IMG/VR virus record: IMGVR_UViG_3300044267_006233
Span: 1 to 28,467 of that record
DNA length: 28,467 bases
Origin: a virus
Taxonomy: Duplodnaviria > Caudoviricetes
Strand: one strand, 5' to 3'
The notes under the pieces were generated by a model, which did no database searches, was not told where the DNA came from, and was given only the letters and a program-made list of their open reading frames with translations. Positions within the stretch are counted from its first letter, which is position 1. Each line of letters starts with the position of its first letter. Below, piece after piece: positions 10,001 through 28,467 of this stretch. Made by a program: the position numbers and the translations under genes.

Positions 10001-12782
10001 TGGGCGATATTTAACCTCTTCTTTTAAATTATTTGAACCCTCTTTGGGTTGGAATCCAAGGTTTAGTAAATCTTGGAACAAAGAACACCAGAAGCTATAC
10101 GAAAGAGCAATAGATTCTTTGACAGCTCTTAACCAACAAGGAGGCAATACAACTTGGACAAAACAGGATTCTATAAATGAAATTGATTCTATTTTAAGAA
10201 TGGAGAAGTTTAATTCGACCACTGATTTGGCGCGTATTCCAGGAATCCTTACAGCTGTGAGTGCCGATCAAGCAGCAGGTATTCCAACCAAAGGTGGCCT
10301 TCTACAAGAAAGATATAAAATACCTTTTGCAATTAGAGAACTAATGGGAGAGCACACGGATCCTAAAATAATGGTAGCGACAACCATTTCTCGTGTGTCT
10401 AAACTTTTAGAAATGGCTGAGTTTTACAGAAGTCTTGAACAAATTAATGAAATGCCAGGAGAGATGCACTTTTCTCCGGTTAGGACAGCTGAATACAGTG
10501 TTCCTGTGAGGGCTCTTGGAGAGTGGAACCCGCTGGATGGCTATTACACAACACCAGAGTTTGCTAATGAAATAGAAATAGGAGGCTCAGAAAGTGGTTT
10601 TTTTGATAACGATTTTGTGTCTTTTTATAGGTCCTTTATTTTAGCGCCAAAAGCAGCTGTTCAGTTTGGAAAAATTGTAATTAGTCCGGCTACTCAAATG
10701 AGAAACTTTGTGGGTGGCGGTATAATGTTCTTGGGCAACGGTCATTGGAGACTGGGTGCTTTTCCTGTGGCCATGGACGCTATTAGTAAGGAGCTTTTTG
10801 GAAGTGGCGTAATATCTTTTATAAAAGACAAGCAAGGCAATAACAAGTTCTACGATAAAGGCAAGCTTAATGATAGGGGTGCGAGAGCAGAAAAAACATT
10901 TAGAAAACTACAAAGGCTCGGTATTGTTAATACCAGTGTAAAACTTAATGATGTCTTAGGTATTTTTGCCAGAGCAAATAGTGGGGAATACAACACATAC
11001 AACGATTTTATTATGGCTTTGTACACTTTAAAAAACACAAAGCCTGGAAAAGTGGCTTCTGCCGTTCCTGAACACCTGCTTACTACAGCGAAAGAGTTTT
11101 ATGCCGCAGCGGATGACTTTTGGAAAATAGCGGCTTGGGCAGCTGAGCGAATGAAGTTGGAAGCCGGTCTGAGAAAAATAGAGGCGTATGCAGAAGGCTC
11201 TTTATCGGAGCAAGCAAAAATGGAAGCTTTGATGGAGTTTGCTGAACGTTTAACTATGAAAACAGGGACAGGCAAAGTTCACAATCAAAGCATGGCTCAA
11301 GTTTTTAGAAACGAGACCAACTTGGAAAGTTTGATCGACGAAATTGCAGCCCATAACGTAAGAATGGGGATGCCTAACTATGATTACATAGGTCGTTTTG
11401 CAAGAACTTGGAGACAGATCGCCATTGTCGGAAACTTTATTGCCTTTCCAACTGAAATGGCTAGGGTGTCTTGGAACATTCCTCAATTGGCCATGCAACA
11501 AGCTACCTTTAGAGTTTCGTCAGACTACATGGAAAAGCACAATTTAAAACGAGAAAACGTACTAGAAAGAACTCCTCTCGGACAAATTATTCCGCTTTCA
11601 AAAAACATAAGGCCGTTTACCACCTCCGCTTTTGAAAAAGGATTGGGCTTTACTATTGCGGCAGGTGGGCTTGGTTTTTCAATAAAAGAAATTGGAAAGA
11701 TTCTTTTCGACATTGATGAAGAAGACTTGGACGCTGCAAGAAATCTTAGTGCCGATTATGCAAAAGATGATTTGATAATTCCTATTGGTGAAATGCGTTC
11801 TCCAGAAGAAGGCGGAGGCTTCCCCGCTCTTAATGGGAACTACATTCTTCCGTGGAGTGAAATATCAAAGCTTTGGCCGATGGTTGAGAAAAACATTAGG
11901 GAAGCAGAACGAACAGGCGACGATTCTTGGGACTCTGGCGTTATAGGCGGTGTTGTGGATTGGGCGGCGAACTACAGCGATCAATATTTAGGCTACGCAA
12001 TTTCAGAGAAAACAAGAAGAGCTATAGCGACAAACACTGATCCTGAGACTTTAAAGCCAATTTATAATGAAGAAGACGCAAGTCTTGGAGAAATCGCATG
12101 GGACGTTATAACTTATATGTGGAAGGACCTAGGACCAGGGCTTTCTCCCCAAGCACAAACTGTAAGGAGAGCTTTTGCTAAAGGAGAAAAACGCTTTGAT
12201 GACTACAACAGAACCGTTTCTATGCCAGAAGCAATGGCTAAAGCTAGTGGTTTAAGTCCTATTCAAATAGAGCCTACAAAGTCTTTAGACTTTGTGATTG
12301 GAGACACTCAAAAATACTTTAAAAAATATGTTCAGCCTGAAATGCTACAGGCTGCCAAAGGTGGTGAAATTTCCGAGCAGGATATTATAGACCAATGGAA
12401 AAAAGCACAGAGCTATTGGTTTTTAGAGCAACAAAGACTTTATTTTGAAGTTCAAGACATGATTAAATTAAATGTTGATCCTGCTAAAATCAAAGCAGAG
12501 TTTGATGATCGAGTAAGAGGGTATGGAAGAGACTTCTATGAAAATATCAGAATGGGTATTTTTACTCCTTGGAAAATTCCTAAGTTTTATCAAGAACAGT
12601 TCGACGAGCTTACAAAACAAATGAGAATCGAAATGTCAAAACAGGGTAGGGACACCAGCTTAATAACAAGAAAGTGGCCAGAAGAAAAGCTTGAGTTTTA
12701 CTACGAGTCTTTAACTAAAGATAAAGGGGTTCCTGCTAGTCTTTTGGAAAATCCGACTCTTTCGTTTCCTTGGGAAGACTAA
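7050..12782 (+). CDS. Large internal virion/ejection protein (T7 gp16-position, large polyvalent protein type), 1910 aa
   Basis: Last and largest gene of the virion operon. N-terminal Gly/Ala-rich hydrophobic segments with 'EGVTEASQE', a long helical body, and 'MPNYDYIGRFARTWRQIAIVGNFIAFPTEMAR' in the C-terminal third. Confidence 0.75.
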   Translation: MSQQIEEARRRARQKAQQTQQLPTSANTPEDEEEFLGFLDSFGRAIDTTQQLGYSFSRVIGEAMDWDELKAFGQRGVERQEEDIAEYEKEGRTVQATELWKKFKNEEEDLEIGDLGIWLKQSAGDVVPPLAVTAGSMWAGTKGGAAIGAMIAGPAAPAGAAIGGTIGAIAGLVLPSYVLGVGEVDLAIKEKAGEDYEAPATALIGGVPIALLDVASLALQLKPVIGPAVRKFGAEQVVDELIKQGAKQNIAKAAVVSAVKNMPVEGVTEASQEYIADLVAEIETGVAKTDQEKIDMMINAGLKGAIGGAIGGGTFEAGATYSQNQKMEEQKALEEWRDKNVVEIDAELEAFRGELPENASDLYDLYGEEILATRSASREEMEQEIVALEREKLWGAALAREASKDALADVSKEMLTEEYLGAVNNLSDSEFADYIAEQFQVDARIVDGEVVWGDQNPETLQDISDNDLMFERWLDKHGLNSRDLQTIKEAMVIENVDSIMRLKGDTAVSKLGLFQFNQYVEDLMTHYTAQELRSIAIVADMFGDTDRAKDMTKTQLATHIAEEKASIELAKQKLGPYIDEKNQQAMIINMEREELGSVPVGEVEETSVIGTPQNRKLQRLIGTTGNAFEVIVQKVDPSKDEGAPGYLGETIVFKRYGPYEFLSEQETDSGYARNLPDRARQEFAQTAFDVYNELPEVKDGTLPRREMRGEEKEFIQQRRRRGAELSTLTPGYEGMTLDEFMATTPENEFKFNQARVVRGSLFHEKGMHGRGAFMEKFLSFLSTRFRPFGPMGLVAGLEYKRMRADIRALDKLAMQLAIGIDKALGEAVRTGEITSIDEGNRLLLSYLRKTGFYRNLDAEIKKFEELKNDKSKTKEQRAQYSKDLGALKGRKEELIADTLAVQEDLKTERDETRREALLERISQNTLELSTKQDRRVALAQLPSSLQDIALKSRKTIDSLSQRILDEMPAEILPEENRPLIQENLGRYLTSSFKLFEPSLGWNPRFSKSWNKEHQKLYERAIDSLTALNQQGGNTTWTKQDSINEIDSILRMEKFNSTTDLARIPGILTAVSADQAAGIPTKGGLLQERYKIPFAIRELMGEHTDPKIMVATTISRVSKLLEMAEFYRSLEQINEMPGEMHFSPVRTAEYSVPVRALGEWNPLDGYYTTPEFANEIEIGGSESGFFDNDFVSFYRSFILAPKAAVQFGKIVISPATQMRNFVGGGIMFLGNGHWRLGAFPVAMDAISKELFGSGVISFIKDKQGNNKFYDKGKLNDRGARAEKTFRKLQRLGIVNTSVKLNDVLGIFARANSGEYNTYNDFIMALYTLKNTKPGKVASAVPEHLLTTAKEFYAAADDFWKIAAWAAERMKLEAGLRKIEAYAEGSLSEQAKMEALMEFAERLTMKTGTGKVHNQSMAQVFRNETNLESLIDEIAAHNVRMGMPNYDYIGRFARTWRQIAIVGNFIAFPTEMARVSWNIPQLAMQQATFRVSSDYMEKHNLKRENVLERTPLGQIIPLSKNIRPFTTSAFEKGLGFTIAAGGLGFSIKEIGKILFDIDEEDLDAARNLSADYAKDDLIIPIGEMRSPEEGGGFPALNGNYILPWSEISKLWPMVEKNIREAERTGDDSWDSGVIGGVVDWAANYSDQYLGYAISEKTRRAIATNTDPETLKPIYNEEDASLGEIAWDVITYMWKDLGPGLSPQAQTVRRAFAKGEKRFDDYNRTVSMPEAMAKASGLSPIQIEPTKSLDFVIGDTQKYFKKYVQPEMLQAAKGGEISEQDIIDQWKKAQSYWFLEQQRLYFEVQDMIKLNVDPAKIKAEFDDRVRGYGRDFYENIRMGIFTPWKIPKFYQEQFDELTKQMRIEMSKQGRDTSLITRKWPEEKLEFYYESLTKDKGVPASLLENPTLSFPWED

Positions 12783-13452
12783 ACTTTTCCACCCGCTCCA
12801 TCCAGGCATCAGCGGCACGTTTAAATTCGTCCCCTTCTAAAACAAACTCCTGGTAAAGACAGTCCACTGAGCACATCATAATCACGCCTTTTTCAATATC
12901 TGTGCCGTACAGCTCGTTGTGTGCCAAAGAATAGGCAGCAAGTTGTTGAAAGTAGTCCCACACCCACTGTCTGCGTTTTGGTCTGTTGGTTTGTTTAAAG
13001 TCTATAATAGAAAGATCGTCGTCATGCACACCGATAACGTCTGCTTGACCAGCGTATTTATCAGGATAGTACAAAGATACTTCGCAACCATACACCTGTG
13101 AGATATTAGGAAACCCTTGGTCCATGATCGTACAGGCCATTTTTAAAGCTCTTTTCTGTTGTGCGTCTTCTGGCTTGTAGTCCCAGATTTCCCCGTTGAC
13201 AATCTGTTTCTCCAGAATGTTGTGCATATAGGTTCCTCTGGTCGCAGCTTCTGTACGAATACGTTCTGCTTCCTCTTCTCCCACCTTTTCTATCCACTTT
13301 TTCAAGAAGTCTCCTTCTTTTGTGCCAGATAGAATAGTGGTTACAGACGGGAGTTTTTCTCCATTGCAGTCATAAAACCTTCCGCCTTTCCTATCCTCGC
13401 TGGAAAACACGCCATACTCGTACGGCGACTCGTAAAGTATTTTATGCTTCAC
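12736..13452 (-). CDS. PD-(D/E)XK exonuclease (MGME1/RecB-family-like), 238 aa
   Basis: Motifs LPSVTTIL, RGTYMH, EVSLY, YAGQADVIG, IIDFKQT, QLAAY. Its 3' end overlaps the convergent 1910-aa gene by 47 nt. Confidence 0.9.
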   Translation of the reverse strand: MKHKILYESPYEYGVFSSEDRKGGRFYDCNGEKLPSVTTILSGTKEGDFLKKWIEKVGEEEAERIRTEAATRGTYMHNILEKQIVNGEIWDYKPEDAQQKRALKMACTIMDQGFPNISQVYGCEVSLYYPDKYAGQADVIGVHDDDLSIIDFKQTNRPKRRQWVWDYFQQLAAYSLAHNELYGTDIEKGVIMMCSVDCLYQEFVLEGDEFKRAADAWMERVEKFSLPKETKESDFPKD

Positions 13453-13453
13453 G

Positions 13454-13624
13454 TTACTGCTTAGGAACTTCGGAAAGTTTTCCGTCTTCCAGGTCTTGTT
13501 TTAAGCGTTTTACCGCAAAAGCAAAGACATTACTGGTCGGTCTTTCGGTTTTTTCTCCGATTTCTGCTGCTAAATCAACGATTTGTCTGCGTATTGCTAC
13601 GCTTTTCCACTTTTTAGTGTCCAT
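13454..13624 (-). CDS. 56-aa ribbon-helix-helix (CopG/Arc-like) transcriptional regulator; not in the ORF track
   Basis: Manual translation: MDTKKWKSVAIRRQIVDLAAEIGEKTERPTSNVFAFAVKRLKQDLEDGKLSEVPKQ*. It has an alternating beta-strand (KSVAI) plus two helices, SD AGGAG at 13630-13634, and fills the polA-exonuclease gap. Confidence 0.75.
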   Translation of the reverse strand: MDTKKWKSVAIRRQIVDLAAEIGEKTERPTSNVFAFAVKRLKQDLEDGKLSEVPKQ

Positions 13625-13644
13625 TTCAACTCCTATTAGTTTGG

Positions 13645-13674
13645 ATTATACATTATATTTTAGGATATATCCTA
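13645..13674 (-). promoter_or_regulatory. Promoter with tandem TATAAT boxes and a perfect 14-bp palindromic operator candidate
   Basis: Minus-strand TATAAT at 13652-13657 and 13645-13650. The palindrome TAGGATATATCCTA at 13661-13674 overlaps the polA stop and the spacer/-35 region. Confidence 0.6.
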
Positions 13675-15537
13675 GTTTTTTGCGACCATAGAGTCGCCCC
13701 AATTTTTTCCAACCTCAGCGTCAACTTTGTTTGGAACCTCCAGAGGCACGGCTTCTTCCATGATCTTACAAATATCCTCTATGTCCTTTTTATCGTCCAC
13801 AGAAAACACCAGTTCATCGTGTACTTGTAACAAAGGGGGATAACCTTCTTGATAACAATGAACCATGGACTGCTTGGTCATGTCAGCAGCCGAACCCTGA
13901 ATTAGTTTATTAAGCGCTTTATAAACAAACGCTCTTTTAATCTCTCCGTTATACTCATGCACAGCTTCTTTGTATTTCATAGGCCGTCCTGTGCCATATT
14001 TTAGTGGTTCCCACATATCAAAGTGGCACCGCCTTCCTAAAATGGTTTTAATATACCCTTTCTGGTTCGCGCTCCTCATTACAGAGTCTGCTAGCTGTCG
14101 AACAAAAGGTGCATAAGTATTAAACTTGGAAAGTATTTCCGAGGCTTCTGGAACTCCAACCCCTAATTGATCGGCAAGCTTGCCTTTGCCCATGCCATAC
14201 ATAATGCCCAGACCAATTGTTTTAGCTGTCTTCCGATCAATTCCCACCAGATTTGCAACCTCCTGGTGAAAGTCTGCGTCTCCGTTTCTGTACGCGTCCG
14301 CAATCGTTGTTGCCCCATCATAATGAGAACGGCTTGCATAGTGCGTCAGTATTCTCGGCTCTTGTTGTGAAAAGTCTGCTGAGCACCATTTTTGTCCTTC
14401 TTCTGGCAAAAACAAAGAACGAATAAGCGGTCCAATTTCTTTGTTGCGCGCAGGAACTTGTTGTAAATTAGGGTTGCTCATTGAGAGCCTTCCCGTAACG
14501 GTTCCTCCTGTTTCGCCTTTAAGTTGTCTTATCTCAGCGTGTATTCTGCCCTTGTGTTCGTGTTTTAAAATAGAATCAATAAAGGTACTGTGCGTCTTGT
14601 TTACCTCTCTTGCCTCCCTTATTAGCTGTGCTACCGGATGAGAGTGGTTTTCTAAAAACGCTTTAGTAAAACTTGGTAGTCCTGTAGGCGTTCTTAAATA
14701 AGACAGTTTCAAAGCATCAAAAACTTTAGACAAAGAGTTTGCTGCCCAGAGTTGAACTTCTTTAACCCCTGACTCTTTTATAATCTCTCTTACTATTTTC
14801 TTTTCTCTCGCAATCAATTTTTTCTTTAGTATCGCTGCCCTTTCAACATCTACACGAACCCCTCTTTGTTTCATGTCCAGGACAACAGGTAAAACACTCA
14901 TTTCTAACTCAAACACGTTCCAAAGGTTTTGTTCTTCCAACAAACCTTTAAATCGGTTCCAAAGTTTTAAGGTAAGTGCAGCGTCTTGCGTTGCATAAGT
15001 GCCAACATAAGCGGAAGGAAGTCTCCACATTTCTGCTTTAGGATCTAGTCCCCACTCTTCTGCTGCCTGTCTAAGCTCTGCCTCTGATTTACCTTCTTGC
15101 AGATACTCTTGTCCTAGGGAATTGAGTGTGTACCAATACATGTTTTCATTAATTAAAGGCGCAACAATCATGGTGTCAATAATTTTTCCCTGGACATCGA
15201 TGCCTTCGTTCTTTAACCAACCAACATCGTACGTCGCATTATGAAAAACCTTGTCTTGTTGTTCTGATACAACATCTCGAACAAACTCCAGCACTCGTTT
15301 TTTAGGAAAGTTAAACCCGGATTCGTGAGCAAAAGGGAAATAATCAGCGAATCCTTCACAAGCAATGGAAACTCCGACTGCCTCTCCGTCTCCTCTAATA
15401 TAACCTGGGCCTAGTTCTTTTAAATTTGGGTCTTTGGTTTCAAGGTCGATAGCTATTTCATCAGCGTCTTTTAATAACTGGGTTGGAAATGTATCGGGTG
15501 GTGTCCACTCTGTAGGTGGTTTATAAACAAAACTCAT
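13672..15537 (-). CDS. polA: Family A DNA polymerase with 3'-5' exonuclease and no 5'-3' exonuclease, 621 aa
   Basis: ExoI IAIDLET, ExoII FHNATYD, ExoIII YATQDA, TGRLSMSNPNLQQVP, motif A SADFSQQEPRI, motif B KTAKTIGLGIMYG, motif C QVHDEL. Confidence 0.97.
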   Translation of the reverse strand: MSFVYKPPTEWTPPDTFPTQLLKDADEIAIDLETKDPNLKELGPGYIRGDGEAVGVSIACEGFADYFPFAHESGFNFPKKRVLEFVRDVVSEQQDKVFHNATYDVGWLKNEGIDVQGKIIDTMIVAPLINENMYWYTLNSLGQEYLQEGKSEAELRQAAEEWGLDPKAEMWRLPSAYVGTYATQDAALTLKLWNRFKGLLEEQNLWNVFELEMSVLPVVLDMKQRGVRVDVERAAILKKKLIAREKKIVREIIKESGVKEVQLWAANSLSKVFDALKLSYLRTPTGLPSFTKAFLENHSHPVAQLIREAREVNKTHSTFIDSILKHEHKGRIHAEIRQLKGETGGTVTGRLSMSNPNLQQVPARNKEIGPLIRSLFLPEEGQKWCSADFSQQEPRILTHYASRSHYDGATTIADAYRNGDADFHQEVANLVGIDRKTAKTIGLGIMYGMGKGKLADQLGVGVPEASEILSKFNTYAPFVRQLADSVMRSANQKGYIKTILGRRCHFDMWEPLKYGTGRPMKYKEAVHEYNGEIKRAFVYKALNKLIQGSAADMTKQSMVHCYQEGYPPLLQVHDELVFSVDDKKDIEDICKIMEEAVPLEVPNKVDAEVGKNWGDSMVAKN

Positions 15538-17075
15538 ATAATGTACCTGTAATAATCGTCTTGGGCTTGTATAAAGTACAAGTTCTCTATGGTGCGAGTA
15601 ACGGCAACATAAAACTGTCTGTGAAGCCCATCTGGTTGTAATACTGAAGAGCGTTTTTGTGCTTTGGATAAGTCCAAATACACAGCAACATTCTCCGCCT
15701 CTCCGCCCTTTGCCTGATGAATCGTTGAAATGACAATTCGCGGTTCTCCGTGCAAGTCTTCATTATTTTTTATTGCTTTTTCTATAAACGATCTTCTTTC
15801 TACATCTATGCTTTTATCAAATAGTTCTTTCCATGTTTTGTTTATAATCTCTTCTTTTAGGCCATAATTGTCTATGGCTTCTTGTAAAGTTATCTTTTGT
15901 CCTTTGTCTACTTGTTGTGCCACTCTGCTTATATACCCTCTTTTAACTCCCTGCTTTCCCAAATGAAAATACAAATCGTCTAGCTCAGACAAAGTAATTT
16001 CTTCTGTTTTGATTTTCTCCCAGGTGTCTATAGCTGACATCATTCTGGCTGGAATGTAGCGGTAATGGTTGTGTACAAAAGGGTACCCGTTATCTATTAG
16101 AAACTTTCTAATATTATACCCTTTAGAAGTGTCTGTGAGCATATAATCACAAGAAGCCATAACTAACCACTCTCCTTTGTCCAGGGGTAGTGTTTCAATA
16201 GAGTTAACATTATTAACCGTTCCCGCTTGCTCTCTTGGTTTATAGTCTTTTGGCTCTCGACATAAAATTCTTTCTGAAATCTTTTTAGCAATAGGATGTA
16301 CTTGTTTGGGTATGCGATAAGATTGGTCTAAAACAATTTTCTCGCCTTCATAATCAACAAACCGCTCTGGTCGGGCTCCGTTCCACTCATAAATTGCTTG
16401 GTCATCGTCTCCTGCTATATATGTTTTTTCTGCTCCGGCTGCCAACTTGTCCACCAGTCTCCAGTTTAGTTCTGCCAGGTCTTGTGCTTCATCTACAATT
16501 AAAAGATCAAGCGGTGGAGCTGTGCCGTCTTCTAAAAAACTAACAATCATATCGGCAAAAGAATAAATAACCGGAGTTCGAGACAACCTAAATTCTTCCC
16601 AGGCCTCCGCCATTGGTTCCAACATGTGAGGAACAACCCCTTTTCTTTGCTCTACGTCCAGGGACAATCGCTCATCTTTTAAAGAACGACAATTGGTTTT
16701 CGCTCGTTCTATGATCTCGAAGTAAGGATCTTGGACCACGGACCTAATGGCTCTTGTGTTGTTGGGATATTTTTTCGTTAGGTTAAACTGATACTCTTCT
16801 AAAAAATCAAAAATGTCGCGCCCACCAACGACATGAGATATTCCCATGTTCCTTTTACAGAACGCATGGCTTGTACAAAAATACGGCATTTCTTCAAAAG
16901 ACAGTCCAAAACGGACATGAGCTCTGTTCTTTCCTTCATTAGCTGCTTTAACAGAAAAAGAAATAAACGCTATCCTCTCTGGTTGTGTTCCTTTGTCGAT
17001 GTGGTCTTCTATAATATTAAGAAGAGTGGTTGTTTTCCCTGTCCCTGGAGGACCAAAATATTTTGTTACTCCCAT
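15534..17075 (-). CDS. UvrD/Rep-like superfamily 1 helicase, 513 aa (start moved from 17150 to the ATG at 17075)
   Basis: Walker A GPPGTGKTT, Walker B IVDEAQD, AGDDDQAIY, QSYR, STIHQAKGGEA, YVAVTR. SD GGAGG precedes the ATG at 17075. Confidence 0.93.
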   Translation of the reverse strand: MGVTKYFGPPGTGKTTTLLNIIEDHIDKGTQPERIAFISFSVKAANEGKNRAHVRFGLSFEEMPYFCTSHAFCKRNMGISHVVGGRDIFDFLEEYQFNLTKKYPNNTRAIRSVVQDPYFEIIERAKTNCRSLKDERLSLDVEQRKGVVPHMLEPMAEAWEEFRLSRTPVIYSFADMIVSFLEDGTAPPLDLLIVDEAQDLAELNWRLVDKLAAGAEKTYIAGDDDQAIYEWNGARPERFVDYEGEKIVLDQSYRIPKQVHPIAKKISERILCREPKDYKPREQAGTVNNVNSIETLPLDKGEWLVMASCDYMLTDTSKGYNIRKFLIDNGYPFVHNHYRYIPARMMSAIDTWEKIKTEEITLSELDDLYFHLGKQGVKRGYISRVAQQVDKGQKITLQEAIDNYGLKEEIINKTWKELFDKSIDVERRSFIEKAIKNNEDLHGEPRIVISTIHQAKGGEAENVAVYLDLSKAQKRSSVLQPDGLHRQFYVAVTRTIENLYFIQAQDDYYRYII

Positions 17076-18652
17076 TCTTTTTCCTCCACAGGCACCCTGA
17101 ACTCTTCTGGAGAAACAGCGTCGTCTATTTCTTTTACATCCATGACCCATACTTTTTTGTTGCCCACAGACTTATCTATCCATTTAGAAGAGTTGATTGC
17201 CCCTATTTCTTTTAGCCGAGTAAACACTTCTGCTTCTTTTATGTTTCTCATCTTTTTAAATTCTTGAATAAACACCACTAGATCACGTCCAGTGAACCAC
17301 CATTCTTTAATGTCGTCTTCTTCGTGTCTGTACACTCCTGCTGAAACAACGGCTAGTTTTGAAGTGGACTCTGAAAGTCTGCAAAACTCTAGTATGACCT
17401 CGTTTAGTACACCTTTCTTTGTCATGTCTGACGGAACATCTACGACTTGAACATCTTGTAGCCACTTATTGAGCTGTGCAACCCAGTCTGATTTCTTTTT
17501 ATCGGGAGGACAAGTGTTTAAAACTTCCATACATTTTTGTTGGTACAAAGAGAAGTTATGCAACTGTTTGGTTTCTAAAACAATGGTTTGTCCATCAATG
17601 TCTAAATGCCAAAGAGGTGGGTCTGTCATGTATTTTCTAAGCCCACCATAGACCGGCTCTCTTTGTGATGCGTCTATGCCGTATCTTCTTGTAATACATA
17701 TACCGCTTTGACAAAACCCTTTAAGTGGGTCTTTGCTACATTGGTATCTGTACTCATTTTTTTCTAGGCTCTGAATAATTGTGTTAAGTTCGCTGTGGGA
17801 CAAAGGTTTTACGCAAGCTGTTTTGTTAACTTCTTGCAGTTTGTCTTTCCATTCTTCGCCTTCGGGATAAACTTTTCTTAGAAACACACCGTAGTTTAAC
17901 ATTGCATTGTTTCTCGTACCTTCTGGCACACCGTTAAGTTTCATGTGCACCAAGCAAGGAGGTGCCTCGTCCCATAGGCCGTCTCCGTTTAGTTGTTTCT
18001 TTCGACCTTTGCGTACTGCGACAAAAGCGTCTAATTCTTCTTCGCTAATGGCCCTTCTTTTAACTATTCTAATAAACTCTTCCGGTCCAGCAGCATCTCC
18101 TTTTGCGTTTATTGCATAACGGGTTGTGTCGTTTCCAGAAAAATAGGGCATATTAAGCCAGTTTCCAGTTTGTTTTTCTTGCGGTAGTTGTTTAGACCAC
18201 TCATATTGTTTAGGAAAAATCTCGTCTCCTGTTCTTCCCATTGAAGCCGCTATTTCTTCTAGTTTGTTTTGAAGTTTAAAAGCCGGGATAGGCTCTTTGG
18301 TAAATAAGAACAGATGTACCCCACCTGATTTAGTCATGCAGGGTACAAGGGGCAATTTCATCTCCTTGATTGTTTTTAGTATTTCTTTGACATTTATTGG
18401 GTACTCATCGACATCGATGCACCCCCAAGAACAGGTCTCGTCATCGGTTAAAGGAACGACTCCTAAAGATAGCTTACCGGCTAGATGTTTTTTCCATAGC
18501 TCAATGGTTAATGGTTCGTGTAGTGTTCTGCCCCTGCCTTCTTTTTTGATTCCCTTTTCTGTGTTCTTCTGTTTTCCAGTTATTTCGTAGATGCCATGTG
18601 CCCTTGTTAAACCAGAAAAAATTTGCATAAGTTTTTCCGCTGTTTTTTCCAC
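17066..18652 (-). CDS. Archaeo-eukaryotic primase (AEP/prim-pol) with PriCT-like domain, 528 aa
   Basis: Motif I WGCIDVDE, motif II TKSGGVHLF, EIFPKQ, GNWLNMPY, then APPCL..GTRNNAML (PriCT-like) and a Cys cluster YQCSKDPLKGFCQSGIC. No Walker A motif. Confidence 0.85.
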   Translation of the reverse strand: MEKTAEKLMQIFSGLTRAHGIYEITGKQKNTEKGIKKEGRGRTLHEPLTIELWKKHLAGKLSLGVVPLTDDETCSWGCIDVDEYPINVKEILKTIKEMKLPLVPCMTKSGGVHLFLFTKEPIPAFKLQNKLEEIAASMGRTGDEIFPKQYEWSKQLPQEKQTGNWLNMPYFSGNDTTRYAINAKGDAAGPEEFIRIVKRRAISEEELDAFVAVRKGRKKQLNGDGLWDEAPPCLVHMKLNGVPEGTRNNAMLNYGVFLRKVYPEGEEWKDKLQEVNKTACVKPLSHSELNTIIQSLEKNEYRYQCSKDPLKGFCQSGICITRRYGIDASQREPVYGGLRKYMTDPPLWHLDIDGQTIVLETKQLHNFSLYQQKCMEVLNTCPPDKKKSDWVAQLNKWLQDVQVVDVPSDMTKKGVLNEVILEFCRLSESTSKLAVVSAGVYRHEEDDIKEWWFTGRDLVVFIQEFKKMRNIKEAEVFTRLKEIGAINSSKWIDKSVGNKKVWVMDVKEIDDAVSPEEFRVPVEEKEWE

Positions 18653-18672
18653 GCGTTTCCTTCATTTTGGAA

Positions 18673-18708
18673 CGCTCCTTCCCAAAACCCCCGTAAAGGA
18701 AAGGAGCG
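18673..18708 (-). promoter_or_regulatory. Intergenic 11-bp RNA hairpin between the SSB-like and primase genes (attenuator or processing site candidate)
   Basis: Minus strand CGCUCCUUUCC (18708-18698) pairs with GGGAAGGAGCG (18683-18673), with one G-U. No strong U tract follows. Confidence 0.5.
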
Positions 18709-18716
18709 CCGTTTAC

Positions 18717-19514
18717 TTAGTCGTCTTCCCAATCTGCTTTTTTACCAGACTGTTCTAACGCAGGATTGTTGCTCTTTGCGCCAGGACCACCAATTTGGTC
18801 CATGCCGCCTTTTGCAACGTGCTTAGAGAACTCTTCTGCTTCTGCAAAAAGGTCCTTTTCGCTCTCCTCAAGCATCCGCTCCTGTGTGATGTTATAGCTA
18901 TACCAACTACCACGATCATTGGACTCTACTTGAGTGGATAAACGATACCAGTGAGAGTACGCAGGTGGAGTAAACATCCCCTTAGCACCCTTTAGTTTCG
19001 TTCCTTGGATCATAGTGTTCCAAGCACGAGAGTGTTTTAGTTGCGATCCTGTCATATTGATTACACACTTTTGAGGTGTTTCATCAACGAGCGCGTAGCC
19101 ATAGTGATTAGCCGTCACTGTCAGTTGGGTTTCCCCTCCTGGAGTGATTAATCGACCTTGACTATCGCGTGTGCACCGATTTAAAAGATCGGAGTCAGCG
19201 GGATGTACAGCCTTTATGCCTCCACCTTTCTCACGCAACCCCCACTCAACGAGTGTTTTGGTGTAGTAAGCCGGTAAAAACAGAAGGCCTTCATCGCCAC
19301 TAATGACGATGTTGGTTCCGCTATAATACAAATCCCCTTCTTCCGCATCTGGGTTATAGTCACTAGACGTTTTTTGTCTTTGTGGAGACAGCGCCTGAAC
19401 TATACTCAAACGAGGTGTGCGAAGGTCATCTGCACTTACATCTCCGAAGCCTTTTTCTTCGATGTTTTCAAATAGGGACGTTATGGATGTCCCATTTCCT
19501 TTCTTCGTTGCCAT
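18717..19514 (-). CDS. Putative ssDNA-binding/annealing protein, 265 aa
   Basis: Lies in the replication operon, has a conserved-looking 'DLRTPRLSIVQALSPQ', a beta-rich core and a flexible tail ending in acidic/aromatic 'DWEDD', as phage SSBs do. Confidence 0.55.
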   Translation of the reverse strand: MATKKGNGTSITSLFENIEEKGFGDVSADDLRTPRLSIVQALSPQRQKTSSDYNPDAEEGDLYYSGTNIVISGDEGLLFLPAYYTKTLVEWGLREKGGGIKAVHPADSDLLNRCTRDSQGRLITPGGETQLTVTANHYGYALVDETPQKCVINMTGSQLKHSRAWNTMIQGTKLKGAKGMFTPPAYSHWYRLSTQVESNDRGSWYSYNITQERMLEESEKDLFAEAEEFSKHVAKGGMDQIGGPGAKSNNPALEQSGKKADWEDD

Positions 19515-19536
19515 ATCTTGGTTCCTCTTTATTCGT

Positions 19537-20106
19537 TCAACGGTTTATTTTTGTGCGTTTGCCTGTGTACACAGAGAATTTCTTCTGTATGTCTACATCA
19601 AACGATGAATTACCCGATTCGATCATTTCTCTTACGAAAGCTCGAAGGGTGCTTGGATGAACTGCTTCCTTAGTTTCGGGTAAGTACCCTTCTTTAGAAA
19701 GCATTTCTACCAATCTGGAAGCGTCAGCATCTTCGCCTTGGCCAAAAGAAACAGTTAGGGTGTTCTTTATAATGTCCCCATGACCGTTGTCTCTTAACCA
19801 ATCGTGCGCTGCCTCCAGGTTGGCGGCAGTAATGCGTGCGCTGTAAAATGGATCTGCTGAAATTCGTGATCCGTCACTGAGTTTTAGATCAGAAACGCCG
19901 AGTTCAGCTAATTTATCTGGAATAGTTTGCTCAGAAAGTTCTCTGTGCTGATCTTTTATTTTTCTCAGCCTTTCTTCTGTGTTCCCTATTTCTCCCTCTA
20001 GGACCAGTAAATCGTGACACAACTTACTTAGACTTTTTATAGCAGGTTCGTCCATGTCCTCAACTGCTTTTTTGATGTTTTCTTCAAACATTTCGTTCAT
20101 CTTCAT
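19537..20106 (-). CDS. Conserved replication-module hypothetical protein, 189 aa
   Basis: N-terminal coiled coil, then 'AHDWLRDNGHGDIIKN' and 'VHPSTLRAFVRE', a pattern I recognise next to SSB-like genes in PolA/SNF2 phages. Confidence 0.7.
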   Translation of the reverse strand: MKMNEMFEENIKKAVEDMDEPAIKSLSKLCHDLLVLEGEIGNTEERLRKIKDQHRELSEQTIPDKLAELGVSDLKLSDGSRISADPFYSARITAANLEAAHDWLRDNGHGDIIKNTLTVSFGQGEDADASRLVEMLSKEGYLPETKEAVHPSTLRAFVREMIESGNSSFDVDIQKKFSVYTGKRTKINR

Positions 20107-20408
20107 TTTTTCTTCCCCTTATTTATAGGTATTATGTTATTCGGTACTCGTTCTTCTTCTTTATCTAAATTTATTTCAAATTCTGGTATGAAAAAAATTA
20201 GTCCCTCGTTATTTACTTCGACGACTTCAACAGATTCTTCTGGTTGGTCTAAGACGGAGTACACATATCTTAGTGTTTCGTCTAAACTAGCGAAAGGGCC
20301 TATTGATTCGCGTAAGTTTTTTTCAAAAGGAGCAAAGTTTATAAACCATCTATTTTTTCTGTCGCTACAGACTTCTATTTTGGTTGTCGTTCTTCGTTCC
20401 TTATTCAT
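20103..20408 (-). CDS. Hypothetical protein, 101 aa (start moved from 20486 to the ATG at 20408)
   Basis: The ORF-track start overlaps the divergent promoter and the SNF2 start. MNKERRTT begins just downstream of the minus-strand promoter and overlaps the next gene by ATGA. Confidence 0.6.
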   Translation of the reverse strand: MNKERRTTTKIEVCSDRKNRWFINFAPFEKNLRESIGPFASLDETLRYVYSVLDQPEESVEVVEVNNEGLIFFIPEFEINLDKEEERVPNNIIPINKGKKK

Positions 20409-20410
20409 AA

Positions 20411-20450
20411 CTTGCACTAAGCATATACTATATGTAGAATAGATTGCAAG
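20411..20450. promoter_or_regulatory. Overlapping divergent sigma70-type promoters
   Basis: Plus strand: TTGCAC (20412-17), 17 bp, TAGAAT (20435-40). Minus strand: TTGCAA (20449-44), 18 bp, TATGCT (20425-20). CTTGCA...TGCAAG inverted arms flank the region. Confidence 0.65.
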
Positions 20451-20476
20451 AAATATTTTAATAAAGAACGAAGGAT

Positions 20477-21934
20477 ATGAAAACAATGGATATAGAAACT
20501 TATAAATTCAAAACCGAACCTTACGAGCACCAAATGGAGACTCTTGCCAGGAGTGCTCATAAAAATCTCTATGCACTTTTCCTTGAGATGGGCCTTGGCA
20601 AATCAAAAATCTTATTAGATAACGCCGGTATGCTCTTCGAGCAAGGAAAAATATCTGGTCTGCTAATTATAACACCAAAAGGTAATTTAAGGAACTGGGA
20701 CACACATGAGATCAACAAGCATTTACCTGATCGCATAGAGAGAAATGTTCTGGTATGGCAACCCAATCACACTAAGCAATGGACCAGGGACTACGATAAA
20801 ATGGTTAAAGAGGACAGTGACGGTGTTCTAAATGTTTTTCTAGTAAACGTCGAAGCCTTTGCAACAGTTAAGGCATGTAAATTTGTTGAAGAGTTTTTGG
20901 TAACACACGATGTAATGATGGCGATTGATGAATCCACTACGATAAAGAATCCGAAAGCCAAGAGAACGAAACATTTAATTAAGCTGGCTCCTCTAGCTGA
21001 TTACCGAAGAATCCTAACAGGGTTCCCCATTACCAAAGCCCCTCTTGACCTGTACTCACAGTGTTATTTTCTGTCGCCTAACTTGTTGGGGTTTTCTAGC
21101 TACTATGCGTTTAGTGCAAGGTATGCGATCACCCAGGCACGCAGAATGGGCGCTCATTCTTTCCAGCAAATTGTTGGTTTTCAAAAACTTGAAGAGCTCC
21201 AACAATCTATTAAAGACTTTTCAATCCGTAAAACGAAAGACCAATGCCTGGATCTTCCTGCCAAAGTATATACAAAGCGTTATGTCGAACTAACGGACGA
21301 GCAAAAGAAAGCTTATGGCACCATGAAACAAAAAGCATTGATGATCTTGGAAGACGAAGTGTTTAGCACCATGAATGTACTGACACAGATTATGCGACTG
21401 CAACAGGTGGTCGCAGGTAGTCTGCGTAACGAAGAGGGTGAAACGATTGTCTTGAAAAACAACAGAGTCCGTGCGGTGCTGGACCTATTAGAAGAAACTT
21501 CTGGAAAGGTGGTTGTTTTTGCGGTGTTTCAAACCGATATACAACAATTAGAAAAGGCTATTGCTGCAAAATTTGGTGAAAGATCTGTGGCCTCTTATTA
21601 TGGTAAGACGCCCCAGGACGACAGACAGCGGATTATTGATAAGTTCCAAGATCCCGACAGCGAGCTACGCTATTTTATTTCTAATCCACAAACAGGCGGT
21701 CGCGGTATTACTTTAACAGAGGCCAGCACCATGATCTTTTATTCTAATTCCTATGACCTAGAGCTGAGAGTCCAGGCAGAGGATCGTATTCACAGAATCG
21801 GGCAAGATAAAAGCTGTACCTATGTTGATCTGGTGTCCAAGGACACCGTTGATGAAAAAATTCTTCAAAACCTTTTAAGCAAAGTTAAAATTAGCAACGA
21901 GGTTCTTGGAGAAATACGCAACTGGTTTAAATAA
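20477..21934 (+). CDS. SNF2-family (SF2) helicase, 485 aa
   Basis: PYEHQ, LFLEMGLGKS, IDEST, ILTGFP, GRGITLT, QAEDRIHRIGQ. Confidence 0.95.
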   Translation: MKTMDIETYKFKTEPYEHQMETLARSAHKNLYALFLEMGLGKSKILLDNAGMLFEQGKISGLLIITPKGNLRNWDTHEINKHLPDRIERNVLVWQPNHTKQWTRDYDKMVKEDSDGVLNVFLVNVEAFATVKACKFVEEFLVTHDVMMAIDESTTIKNPKAKRTKHLIKLAPLADYRRILTGFPITKAPLDLYSQCYFLSPNLLGFSSYYAFSARYAITQARRMGAHSFQQIVGFQKLEELQQSIKDFSIRKTKDQCLDLPAKVYTKRYVELTDEQKKAYGTMKQKALMILEDEVFSTMNVLTQIMRLQQVVAGSLRNEEGETIVLKNNRVRAVLDLLEETSGKVVVFAVFQTDIQQLEKAIAAKFGERSVASYYGKTPQDDRQRIIDKFQDPDSELRYFISNPQTGGRGITLTEASTMIFYSNSYDLELRVQAEDRIHRIGQDKSCTYVDLVSKDTVDEKILQNLLSKVKISNEVLGEIRNWFK

Positions 21935-26294: not shown

Positions 26295-26430
26295 GGAAAA
26301 AGCGGCTTTATATTGGTATAACCAAGGTTATAGAGAGGAGGCTTTGCACCAAAAAATAGAAGAGACGATGGAACAAGGACGCCTCGTTGACGAGGGCCAT
26401 ATTACTTGTGCAGGCGGGGTTTGCGACTAG
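26266..26430 (+). CDS. 54-aa acidic protein ending in CAGGVCD; not in the ORF track
   Basis: Manual translation: METTEDDISREKAALYWYNQGYREEALHQKIEETMEQGRLVDEGHITCAGGVCD*. It overlaps the previous gene by 29 nt and has protein-like composition. Confidence 0.55.
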   Translation: METTEDDISREKAALYWYNQGYREEALHQKIEETMEQGRLVDEGHITCAGGVCD

Positions 26431-26536
26431 CTATAATAGGCATGTAGTTTTTAGGGTTCGACAAGCCTTTGTTGAACCTGGGTATCAACCAACCTATTAT
26501 TCTTATTTTTCTTATTAAGTCTTTCATTCTCTTTCC

Positions 26537-26566
26537 AATAAAATCGGGGGAGTTATTTCCCCCGAT
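26537..26566 (-). terminator. Rho-independent terminator of the leftward operon
   Basis: 9-bp stem ATCGGGGGA (26543-51) / TCCCCCGAT (26558-66) with a 6-nt loop, followed on the minus strand by UUUAUU. Confidence 0.75.
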
Positions 26567-26573
26567 CTACACC

Positions 26574-26697
26574 TGGGCCGTTCCTCAACGCGCAAACATC
26601 TCTTCTCGACCCATATGTTCTTTAAAGTCCCATTGTTTATGTCTGCAATTTTATCGACGTACGCTGACACCACACACATAAACTACCGAACTGGGAC
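26574..26697 (-). ncRNA. Candidate structured RNA (two hairpins) just upstream of the terminator
   Basis: Stems GUCCCA/UGGGAC (26697-92/26632-27), GUUUAUGU/ACAUAAAC (26683-76/26642-35) and UGGGUCG/CGGCCCA (26613-07/26580-74). G-U pairs favour the minus strand. Confidence 0.3.
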
Positions 26698-26718
26698 CAA
26701 ATCCGTCTTAACAAGGCG

Positions 26719-27039
26719 TCAGCTACTCAAAAACTCTGAGTGTTTCTTGGGATCATCGACCACGACCACCCATTCTAAGGTGCCGTTGTCGTCCCACTGC
26801 ATTAAAACTGCCCCTAGACACGCTGTCATGTCTAGCTCATTAAAAATTTTATAGGCCGTGAGCGCGGTTAATTGATCCGAGTAGAAGTGCATCACGGATT
26901 TGCTCTTGCCATTGGGCATTTCGCCTTTGTATATTTCAGTTAGGTTAAAATCGTCTGTGAACAACGTACAAGTGTGCGATAAGAAATCAGCGTCTTCTTT
27001 GTTGTAATAGACAAGTGTTATTGGATCGCTATTGCTCAT
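26719..27039 (-). CDS. Hypothetical protein, 106 aa (start moved to the ATG at 27039)
   Basis: SD-like AAGGAAAGGA precedes MSNSDPITL. This start gives an 11-nt overlap with the upstream gene instead of 95 nt. Confidence 0.65.
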   Translation of the reverse strand: MSNSDPITLVYYNKEDADFLSHTCTLFTDDFNLTEIYKGEMPNGKSKSVMHFYSDQLTALTAYKIFNELDMTACLGAVLMQWDDNGTLEWVVVVDDPKKHSEFLSS

Positions 27040-27373
27040 ATTTCCTTTCCTTTCCTTTTTCTTTAAGTAAATCAAGTAGGGGCTTGAGTTTATCCCAGGT
27101 TGTTTTCTGTGGGTTTTTGCCATGAAGGGTAAAATCCTTCAGGGTTCTGTAATCAACACTAATTAAAACCCCAATTGTTTTCCAAACATCTATTTCGTTG
27201 ACTTTTCCTGTCTGTTTTTTACAAAGATGTGCGTGAAAATCTTTAAGCAACTCTCTATAAGCATGGTAGATGTCGCTTTTTTCAAAGTAGCCGTTGTCGT
27301 AAAGAAACTTAAATCTTTCTTCTAAAGAGTTTCCTTTGATAATAAATCTAGTTTGTCCGTTTTGTTCGTACAT
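27029..27373 (-). CDS. Hypothetical protein with possible Cro/XRE-like HTH, 114 aa
   Basis: The C-terminal half 'VWKTIGVLISVDYRTLKDFTLHGKNPQKTTWDKL' fits the XRE HTH spacing pattern. Confidence 0.55.
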   Translation of the reverse strand: MYEQNGQTRFIIKGNSLEERFKFLYDNGYFEKSDIYHAYRELLKDFHAHLCKKQTGKVNEIDVWKTIGVLISVDYRTLKDFTLHGKNPQKTTWDKLKPLLDLLKEKGKERKYEQ

Positions 27374-27374
27374 C

Positions 27375-27608
27375 TCAATACCCCTGGGTCACATGGGAAT
27401 AAGCGTCTGGACAGTCTTCAACATCTTTTCCACAAGTGCATTTGTCTTTTTCTGTTGGTAACGGTCTCAAGACACCGCTGTCGTCGAAAAAAACCGTGTC
27501 GGGATGCGACGTTTTTAAAAGTTTGTGTAGCGTTTTTGTTATTTCTTCAGGCGACATTGTTTTGTTTGCCTTGAGTATCCAGTCTATTAAGTTAAATTCT
27601 TTTGCCAT
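27375..27608 (-). CDS. Hypothetical protein, 77 aa, with a C-terminal CxC-x6-C-x5-H motif
   Basis: SD AGGGAG and 'CTCGKDVEDCPDAYSHVTQGY'. First gene after the structured leader. Confidence 0.7.
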   Translation of the reverse strand: MAKEFNLIDWILKANKTMSPEEITKTLHKLLKTSHPDTVFFDDSGVLRPLPTEKDKCTCGKDVEDCPDAYSHVTQGY

Positions 27609-27613
27609 TTTTT

Positions 27614-27720
27614 CTCCCTGATCTTATGCCTGGTTCTTTTTTATATGTTTATCTCGGTTGCCCAAAGAACCAGGCTAACGGACTAAGATCGGATCCGAAA
27701 TTAAAGGAGGCCAACCGAGT
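27614..27720 (-). ncRNA. Structured 5' leader (pseudoknot or two-state switch) abutting the RBS
   Basis: Interleaved stems 27712-27719/27653-27660 (8 bp), 27664-27675/27628-27639 (12 bp) and 27684-27690/27620-27626 (7 bp). It begins at the predicted transcription start. Confidence 0.55.
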
Positions 27721-27726
27721 AAGTGA

Positions 27727-27754
27727 ATTATACCCCAAAGTAACATAAAGTAAA
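27727..27754 (-). promoter_or_regulatory. Sigma70-type promoter for the leftward small-gene operon
   Basis: TTTACT (27754-49), 16 bp, TATAAT (27732-27), with an AT-rich upstream element. Predicted +1 is near 27720. Confidence 0.6.
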
Positions 27755-27814
27755 CAATATTTTGTATATTTTTTTGAGCACGAAGGAAAAGGGTGTTTTG
27801 TCGTTCGTGAGATT

Positions 27815-27937
27815 GACCAAGGTCCAAGGACCAGGGACTTTTGTCCTGTTTCTAAGGGTGACTTGCTTGTTTCTATAATTGACTTGCTTGTTTCTCCAGC
27901 AGGAGGGCGGGTTTCTCCAGGGGAAACGTTGATTTCT
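27815..27937. repeat. 7-bp tandem repeats followed by five 21-bp-phased (G/A)TTTCT boxes
   Basis: gaccaag gtccaag gaccagg gac at 27815-27838. (g/a)tttct starts at 27848, 27869, 27890, 27911 and 27932. tgacttgcttgtttct is exact at 27859 and 27880. Confidence 0.85.
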
Positions 27938-28216
27938 CCACCGCACCTCAAAAAAACGTAGAAGTTCACTAAAAGTTAGGTGAAAACACAGGTACGAAGG
28001 CTCTGAAACCCTTTAAAATCAAGGGGTCTTGTTTTCCTATATAGACAACCACCACCTAACCTGAACTTCTACTTTTGTGATTTTACAAAAGACTAATACG
28101 AAAAAAAGTTGGAAAAGTGAGGTGCGGAGGTGCGTTTTCCTTGAAAACCTTTGTTTATAGGGGTTTTCACCTAACCTGACAGAGGTGCGGTGGAGGTGCG
28201 GTGGGTTAGGTGAAAA
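27935..28216. repeat. Nested inverted and direct repeats with an AGGTG core (replication origin or packaging-site candidate)
   Basis: Inverted repeats at 27941-50/28118-27, 27958-68/28062-72, 27975-82/28053-60 and 28164-76/28204-16. Tandem gaggtgcggtg at 28182-92 and 28193-203. Confidence 0.8.
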
Positions 28217-28256
28217 AATACTTACTAAATCTTACTTAAAACTATATAATTTAATT

Positions 28257-28467
28257 ATGCCAAAAGGACAATCAGGAAATATATCAGGTCGTAACGACAA
28301 ACACTTGACGCCAAAACAGATTCGTTTTGCTAAAGAGTTTGTTTATAACGATGGATCAAAAACACAAACCGAGTGTGCTGTAGCTGCTGGGTACGGCAAG
28401 TCGAGTGCTCATGTTCGGGCATCAGAGCTGTTAAACCCACAAAAATATCCGCTTGTTGTTCGATATA
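28257..28467 (+). CDS. terS: Terminase small subunit, 3'-truncated by the window edge; not in the ORF track
   Basis: MPKGQSGNISGRNDKHLTPKQIRFAKEFVYNDGSKTQTECAVAAGYGKSSAHVRASELLNPQKYPLVVRY carries the classic TerS HTH pattern 'LTPKQ.RF..E....T..A..AGY...SA...ASELL'. TATAAT lies 6 nt upstream of the ATG. Confidence 0.85.
   Translation, partial: MPKGQSGNISGRNDKHLTPKQIRFAKEFVYNDGSKTQTECAVAAGYGKSSAHVRASELLNPQKYPLVVRY

Follow-up and report, generated by a model that had tools for sequence, protein, structure and literature searches.

A predicted double-pseudoknot RNA motif, maintained by compensatory change, in the small-gene cassette of HTVC023P-related phages

Several described RNA systems share individual features with a motif found on the minus strand of a phage genome (Duplodnaviria; Caudoviricetes), the complete virus record IMGVR_UViG_3300044267_006233 of IMG/VR, whose 28,467 nucleotides (nt) are referred to here as the window. 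The SAM-II and SAM-V riboswitches, which sense S-adenosylmethionine (SAM), are built on a scaffold in which a first helix, P1, holds two 5' strands in its loop and is followed by an A-rich linker and two stacked 3' strands beside the Shine-Dalgarno (SD) sequence. The type III antitoxins ToxI and CptI, together with phage pseudo-ToxI, consist of short pseudoknotted repeats with an A-rich linker. The CPK1 pseudoknot, typified by the gene 32 translational operator of phages T2, T4 and T6, has, according to the accessible portion of PMC11262651, a second stem of 6-7 base pairs (bp), a 1-2 nt loop across it, and adjacent stems. In E. coli reporters, pseudoknots obstruct RNase E scanning to an extent proportional to the number of coaxial pairs, and 15 bp make a strong block (PMC9943677, in part), and a pseudoknotted exoribonuclease-resistant RNA (xrRNA) of flaviviral origin halts the bacterial RNase J1 (PMC5760640, in part). 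Finally, hammerhead ribozymes occur in prophages as clusters of several copies that flank single genes or short, non-constant blocks (PMC3088659, in part).

The first copy of the motif (copy 1; subtype 1; 100 nt; 27620..27719) comprises four helices that share no bases and whose strands follow the order A-B-C-B'-D-A'-D'-C'; all coordinates are those of the minus strand unless stated otherwise. The 5' strand of helix A (27709..27719) pairs with 27653-27663, and its core consists of eight Watson-Crick pairs (27719-27712 with 27660-27653), reaching 10 of 11 when a G.G mismatch is spanned. It is followed by the variable linker of the outer pseudoknot (27698..27708), which contains an anti-SD-like UCCUU, and by helix B (27697-27693 with 27683-27679; span 27679..27697), the most conserved part, whose loop is made up of a 2-nt linker and the 5' strand of helix C. 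Helix C (27690-27684 with 27626-27620; 7 bp) closes the fold with its 3' strand, and helix D (27675-27664 with 27639-27628) comprises 12 bp; the A-rich linker L3 (27640..27652) crosses helix A and carries an inserted hairpin in the related locus L116. The first cassette gene has its SD (27619-27614) and start codon (together 27606..27619) outside all four helices. The predicted fold is that of two interlocked H-type pseudoknots, an inner one formed by B and C and a larger, outer one formed by A and D.

A first-pass annotation had already named three of these pairings (the 8-bp core of helix A, as P1, and the 12-bp and 7-bp helices) as well as the extension of P1, and each was recovered at the minus-strand positions it had given. 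Its pseudoknot topology also stood up to 5000 dinucleotide shuffles of the 124-nt stretch: crossing stems of 8 and 12 bp were formed in none, a stem of at least 12 bp in one, and crossing stems of 7 and 8 bp in 48. The plain minimum free energy (MFE) fold of the whole leader was unremarkable (z -1.5), since plain MFE folding cannot form pseudoknots. The CGGAU/GUCCG pairing, by contrast, had been taken for an alternative hairpin and turned out to be helix B of the same fold: it uses none of the bases of the other three and is conserved together with them. Overlooked in that annotation was a second copy (copy 2; subtype 2; 26626..26723; model match at 26624-26733), located about 900 nt downstream of copy 1 and built of helices A (26723-26715/26671-26663), B (26705-26701/26691-26687), C (26698-26692/26632-26626) and D (26683-26672/26646-26635). 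The two copies are identical in 59 of 109 aligned columns (54%).

Homologues were sought with the terminase gene as an anchor, 80 of 246 loci being kept and their upstream sequence read, and BLAST combined with promoter position yielded eight variants. A first model built from these, pairing only parts of A and B, found copy 2 and copies in relatives; a second model weakly matched a third subtype, which was then confirmed by eye and by pattern, and pattern scans of viral and metagenome collections added further variants, all from the same clade. One of the 29 distinct sequences contained N and was dropped, leaving 28 (11, nine and eight of subtypes 1, 2 and 3, respectively), and MAFFT was unable to align the three subtypes jointly, so that no single covering model was obtained. 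Among 35 loci with at least 1500 nt of upstream sequence (L115-L161), the motif is present in 34, whole in 33 and cut by a contig end in one; the sole exception, L137, lacks it at both homologous places, its contig being itself cut short. Contigs L128, L143, L144 and L145 end within the motif, as would be expected if one shared sequence branched there into different cassettes. The next clade (L162-L194) has the motif in none of 16 loci, and most of those inspected lack the cassette. Each of five longer records (14-49 kb, 23-80% complete) contains one or two copies.

A scan for the topology alone, free of sequence constraints, was run over the window together with 19 stretches that cover most of G006, G007, HTVC027P, DSL-LC04 and 023Pt_psg01 and part of G001, and returned exactly the three copies known from these; over 470 loci (1.40 Mb) it returned 31 matches, every one a member of this family. 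It provides a better negative than model R2, whose empty results are weak because it overlooked a subtype-3 copy in G006. Among the pattern matches listed for prokaryote genomes, none of 32 passed the structure test; among those listed for the viral core pattern, which come from 33 of 64 parts, 15 of 121 passed, namely 12 known members and three GC-rich chance passes. Candidate matches in L230, L233, L237, L239, L451, L456 and L460 were inspected and discarded as chance; the one in L230 (~890-908, minus strand), a chance-level core match on an unrelated short contig with several more local complementarities, failed the structure test. As seen here, the family appears to be confined to one subclade of HTVC023P-related phages, with the qualification that the collections were reached by exact patterns only and that distant forms could escape these.

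Compensatory changes, proposed in the first-pass annotation as a check on homologues, were found in all four helices. When the 28 sequences were parsed by hand, 140 of 140 cells were paired in B, 196 of 196 in C, 294 of 307 in D and 214 of 224 in A, with two-sided changes at 1/5, 5/7, 10/11 and 8/8 positions, respectively; the resulting percentages are inflated, as pairing was required and the register of A and the bulges in D were picked for each sequence. A plain MAFFT alignment of subtype 3 gave 99.5% of 192 cells paired and two-sided changes in nine of 24 pairs, one of them in B, a level reached in 0 of 500 shuffles, while slid partners gave 31-46%. For helix A, an alignment not fitted to that helix was 85.8% paired, as against 76.8%, with a two-sided-pair count reached in 74 of 500 shuffles; its four core pairs are always paired and show UA/CG and GC/AU swaps, and two outer columns fail in copy 2. 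Helices C and D, in an alignment fitted to both, were 95.3% paired, with 13 of 19 pairs two-sided. The sequences are related and hence not independent; nevertheless, swaps occur both within and between subtypes. The alignments indicate that the four helices are kept by compensatory changes, and on the strand read from the promoter there are 117 G-U cells but only four A-C cells.

Helix geometry is likewise preserved. Helix D has 10-12 bp, and the linker l1 spans 1-3 nt over a helix C of 7-8 bp in subtypes 1 and 2 and 5 nt over one of 9 bp in subtype 3, a lengthening of l1 with C that matches the requirement of a pseudoknot. Three linkers tolerate insertions, and the sole unpaired base present in every copy is an A before helix D (which the final search pattern demanded). 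The sequence of helix B is near-invariant, with two wobble pairs retained, and about ten near-invariant bases cluster at the B/C/D junction. A helix A as long as 17-18 bp, with no more than 2-3 nt of L3, is conceivable in the L129 lineage; these pairs cannot all coexist with D, and the outer part starts before the predicted +1. A coding role was rejected on the basis of 1-nt indels in the motif (L129 versus L130; the window versus L033 and L116) and of a frame beyond the copy-2 stop codon that is not kept, and readings as a CsrA site, a T-loop, a tRNA acceptor (there is no conserved CCA) or a true knot were weighed by eye and set aside.

The absence of a recognisable family, noted in the first-pass annotation, was borne out by Rfam 15, which at the gathering score gave no match in the window or in 20 related loci and, at E-values up to 5-10 and for all subtypes, only a chance microRNA model (E 0.073; 23.7 bits versus 71). 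BLAST of positions 27300-27800 against GenBank phages returned no match, a literature search found no paper describing the motif, and it does not appear in the accessible portions of the Minerva preprint (10.64898/2026.09.22.753630) or PMC9599517. Fremin et al. 2023 (PMC10690425) mined IMG/VR and reported, according to the accessible part of that paper, 8,495 candidates, among which part of the motif may figure; six 12-letter motifs were absent from its supplementary tables of properties and of BLAST hits. Judged by conservation, geometry and the catalogues consulted, this is a real and previously undescribed structured RNA family.

Its resemblance to the systems described above is partial in every case. 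The B/C unit of the window copies, with a 5-bp first stem, a 7-bp second stem, a 2-nt loop and no gap, has the geometry of CPK1, and an A-rich, unstructured stretch follows in many copies; however, the motif adds a second, interlocked pseudoknot (A/D), and subtype 3 departs from the type with its 5-nt loop over 9 bp. Nor does the motif lie in the leader of an SSB (single-stranded DNA-binding protein) gene, as the T4-type gene 32 operator does, the genes behind it encoding peptides or a C5 methylase, or being absent. With flavivirus xrRNAs and RNase E obstacles it has in common a compact multi-pseudoknot build, frequent occurrence as two copies, a start at a stop codon and long coaxial stacks that a nuclease would have to get past, whereas it has neither the three-way-junction fold nor an xrRNA match in Rfam, belongs to a DNA phage of a bacterial host and occurs also at the predicted 5' end; its resistance and any threading of the 5' end are putative. 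The clustered prophage hammerheads are similar in arrangement, but the motif lacks the hammerhead core and an Rfam match and has another order of helices. SAM-II and SAM-V share the order of the outer scaffold, yet the last helix of the motif excludes the SD, helix B is additional, and there is no SAM-II core, no methionine or SAM gene and no Rfam match. Finally, like the type III antitoxins, the motif is a pseudoknotted unit with an A-rich linker, and processing of a longer transcript could set it free, but it is ~100-120 nt long rather than a short repeat, is present as a single copy or two dispersed copies, and has no adjacent toxin gene.

A copy of the motif stands at the head of the cassette in 25 of the 35 loci and only in the middle or tail in nine, one locus has none, and 14 have two copies. 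Subtype 1 begins 2-9 nt beyond the -10 box, i.e., at the predicted 5' end, and downstream copies start at the preceding gene's stop codon. The promoter-like site itself (sigma-70 type, TTTACT ... TATAAT; 27727..27754; 10 of 12 consensus matches; predicted +1 near 27720) is not significant singly, as the scan found four such sites versus 6.5 expected; it is conserved in position across related loci, including L127 and L137, where no RNA follows. These two loci, together with glycosylase-first loci lacking a copy behind the promoter, show that the promoter is independent of a following copy. The genes beside the motif vary among short peptides of no recognised family, a 106-amino-acid (aa) gene (24 of 35 loci), a pyrimidine-dimer glycosylase homologue, a C5 DNA methylase, and no recognised gene, the last being true behind the tail copies of L135, L138 and L140.

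We tentatively propose that the motif acts as a boundary against nucleases, lending stability to the cassette mRNA and itself persisting as a small RNA. Host RNA polymerase would make one cassette transcript from the conserved promoter; B would stack on C to give 12-14 bp and D on A to give 21-24 bp, so that the unit would have its 5' strand (A) and its 3' strand (C) alike held in pseudoknot helices. Placed at the head or in the middle, a copy would impede the access of scanning RNase E, or of a 5'-3' exonuclease, to the genes that follow; placed at the tail, it would hold up 3'-5' trimming of the genes that precede. The unit would then be left as a stable RNA of 100-120 nt. A fold that stays constant while its position in the cassette and its partner genes change fits such a position-independent module, as conserved helix geometry with insertion-tolerant linkers fits a physical obstacle, and the placement of subtype 1 at the predicted 5' end and of downstream copies at stop codons counts in its favour, as do the published effects of pseudoknots on RNase E and RNase J1 described above. 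Of the two options in the first-pass annotation, a cis-regulator or a stand-alone RNA, the latter is the best fit to the data.

Several points weigh against the proposed barrier. The near-invariance of helix B and its two kept wobble pairs exceed what a plain obstacle needs and point to chemistry or to recognition of a specific kind. A copy at the tail only (L140) would be no shield from 5' attack and a head-only copy none from 3' attack, so that the model needs two modes, and the head copies of subtype 3, at 13 nt from the -10 box, leave their first ~6 nt unpaired. Moreover, the arrangement fits the prophage hammerhead clusters equally well.

That last point leads to a reading that we consider unlikely, in which the motif is an undescribed class of self-cleaving ribozyme that cuts the cassette transcript into gene blocks, with the B/C/D junction as its putative active site. 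Copies do flank short blocks of changing genes, as hammerheads do in prophages (PMC3088659, in part), and a compact double pseudoknot with some ten near-invariant bases at one junction would suit a catalyst. Against this, those bases are almost all paired, and the linkers adjacent to the core vary in length (J, 3 versus 9-14 nt; l1, 1-3 versus 5 nt). Known self-cleaving ribozymes (hammerhead, HDV, twister, twister sister, pistol, hatchet, glmS and hairpin) gave no Rfam match to the motif in any subtype, even at the permissive E-values, and none takes its place in the 20 related loci; the strand order is also unlike those of HDV, twister and pistol, as generally known and compared here by hand. 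It is doubtful that two interlocked pseudoknots with an internal two-fold order (A/C and B/D swap on reversal) constitute a new natural ribozyme class punctuating a small-gene transcript.

Alternatively, the motif may be a small RNA gene whose unit, once released, serves as a decoy for a protein of the host or the phage, on the model of type III antitoxins or their phage mimics. The gene-like behaviour of the motif, with 34 of 35 loci having one copy or more irrespective of position, the sequence-conserved helix B, which suggests a binding surface, and the pairing that protects both ends are consistent with this idea, which we nevertheless regard as unlikely. There is no tandem array and neither a cognate toxin nearby (no toxin family was found among 12 cassette proteins scanned) nor a constant partner gene beside the motif across the 35 loci; the scan found neither a promoter nor a terminator belonging to copy 2; and no host counterpart emerged, given that none of the 32 prokaryote-genome matches listed passed.

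The first-pass annotation itself had offered a riboswitch-like translational switch gating the small-gene operon, taken here as a switch or attenuator acting in cis, whereby a pyrimidine tract in the linker would pair with the SD and a ligand, a protein or a ribosome upstream would control this pairing. Its SD and the CUCCUU tract (27709-27704) are indeed in place, the latter with its UCCUU in an unpaired linker, and anti-SD-like tracts recur in a linker of 18 of the 28 sequences (the variable linker of eight of 11 subtype-1 copies, and L3 of 5/9 and 5/8 in subtypes 2 and 3). Linker-SD pairing beats shuffled linkers in five of 19 SD-bearing copies (p <=0.025), and downstream copies overlap the upstream stop codon, such that a terminating ribosome would open helix A. 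The remaining 14 copies do not beat the shuffles at p 0.025, and in the window the linker pairs with the SD no better than shuffled linkers do (p 0.44). No helix covers the SD in any copy, its distance past helix C ranges over 2-22 nt in promoter-proximal copies, and within 30 nt an SD is missing from nine of the 28 sequences, some of which retain the tract; accessibility of the SD in a nested ensemble runs from 0.01 to 0.99 with no shared pattern. Nor does the hairpin once taken for an alternative conflict with any other helix. A translational riboswitch is expected to sequester the SD in a helix at a fixed distance and to hold a constant 5' position before genes of one pathway, and neither is seen here, as 10 of 35 loci have no head copy and the genes downstream are unrelated (DNA methylase, unassigned peptides, or none) and share no metabolic theme. 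A switch of this kind is quite improbable, and while some cis effect of the anti-SD tract retains a small opening, a conserved switch does not.

A role at the DNA level (a single-stranded DNA signal, or a recombination hub for cassette shuffling) or an origin by chance is very improbable indeed: the motif adjoins a repeat-rich non-coding region near the terminase gene and four contigs end inside it, but the G-U excess on the promoter-read strand, the mere 54% identity of same-genome copies, the compensatory changes in crossing helices and a sequence-free scan that returned this family only all argue otherwise.

The cassette in which the window copies reside lies on the minus strand, points away from the terminase small subunit gene (start, 28305..28467, plus strand), which is divergent from it, and is presumably expressed early, given its host-type promoter. 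Its first gene is a 77-aa open reading frame (ORF; 27375..27608; no family above cut-off), replaced in relatives by a 28-aa form or a different gene; the Cys/His-bearing C-terminal peptide of this ORF (27375-27461) stands alone in relatives as an ORF of 28-43 aa. An accessory 114-aa ORF (27029..27373), also with no family above cut-off, is followed by the 106-aa ORF (26719..27039), the stop codon of which (26721-26719) falls inside helix A of copy 2 and whose product has no match in ESM Atlas, Pfam or PHROGs. About 60 nt behind copy 2 is a G/C-rich hairpin with a weak U tract (26547-26563), just before the SD of a conserved 41-aa ORF (26402..26527) that converges on the virion genes. In the cassettes of L140, L149 and L152, the RNA motif is accompanied by a homologue of pyrimidine-dimer DNA glycosylase (PF03013) and by a C5 cytosine methylase (PF00145).

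Between the promoter and the terminase gene is a long non-coding stretch (27750-28300) with recurring short motifs and nested perfect inverted repeats (14 bp, 27936-27949/28182-28195; 13 bp, 27975-27987/28163-28175), along with a 15-bp repeat at 93% (27954-27968/28062-28076). It is 73-87% conserved across 300-400 nt in relatives, and clades without the RNA motif show a similar repeat pattern; it is a candidate genome end, packaging site or origin. In a more distant clade (L171, L172, L187 and L188), the promoter sequence of the RNA motif occurs on the opposite strand, ~70-120 nt upstream of the terminase gene and facing that gene. The window as a whole (GC content, 43%) includes genes for virion proteins, DNA polymerase A, primase, helicase and exonuclease, the virion-gene run being interrupted by a replication-gene block on the opposite strand (12736-21934). 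Its polymerase and small terminase are nearest those of 023Pt_psg01, HTVC023P, HTVC027P and DSL-LC04 (50-54% and 30-51% identity, respectively), indicating a relative of HTVC023P-type phages.

Taken together, the data describe a predicted RNA of ~100 nt that is absent from the catalogues, comes in three natural subtypes and shows covariation in each of its four crossing helices. Should it block nucleases, phages would have in it a natural equivalent of xrRNAs, and it would be a stabiliser or insulator of mRNA that is portable; should it cleave, it would represent a new ribozyme class in relatives of the ocean's most abundant phage group; and should it serve as a decoy, it would point to a host target not yet known. 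Whichever applies, the motif adds RNA biology to the HTVC023P-related phages, one genomic survey of which (PMC9599517) contains, in its accessible portion, neither the word noncoding nor the word tRNA.
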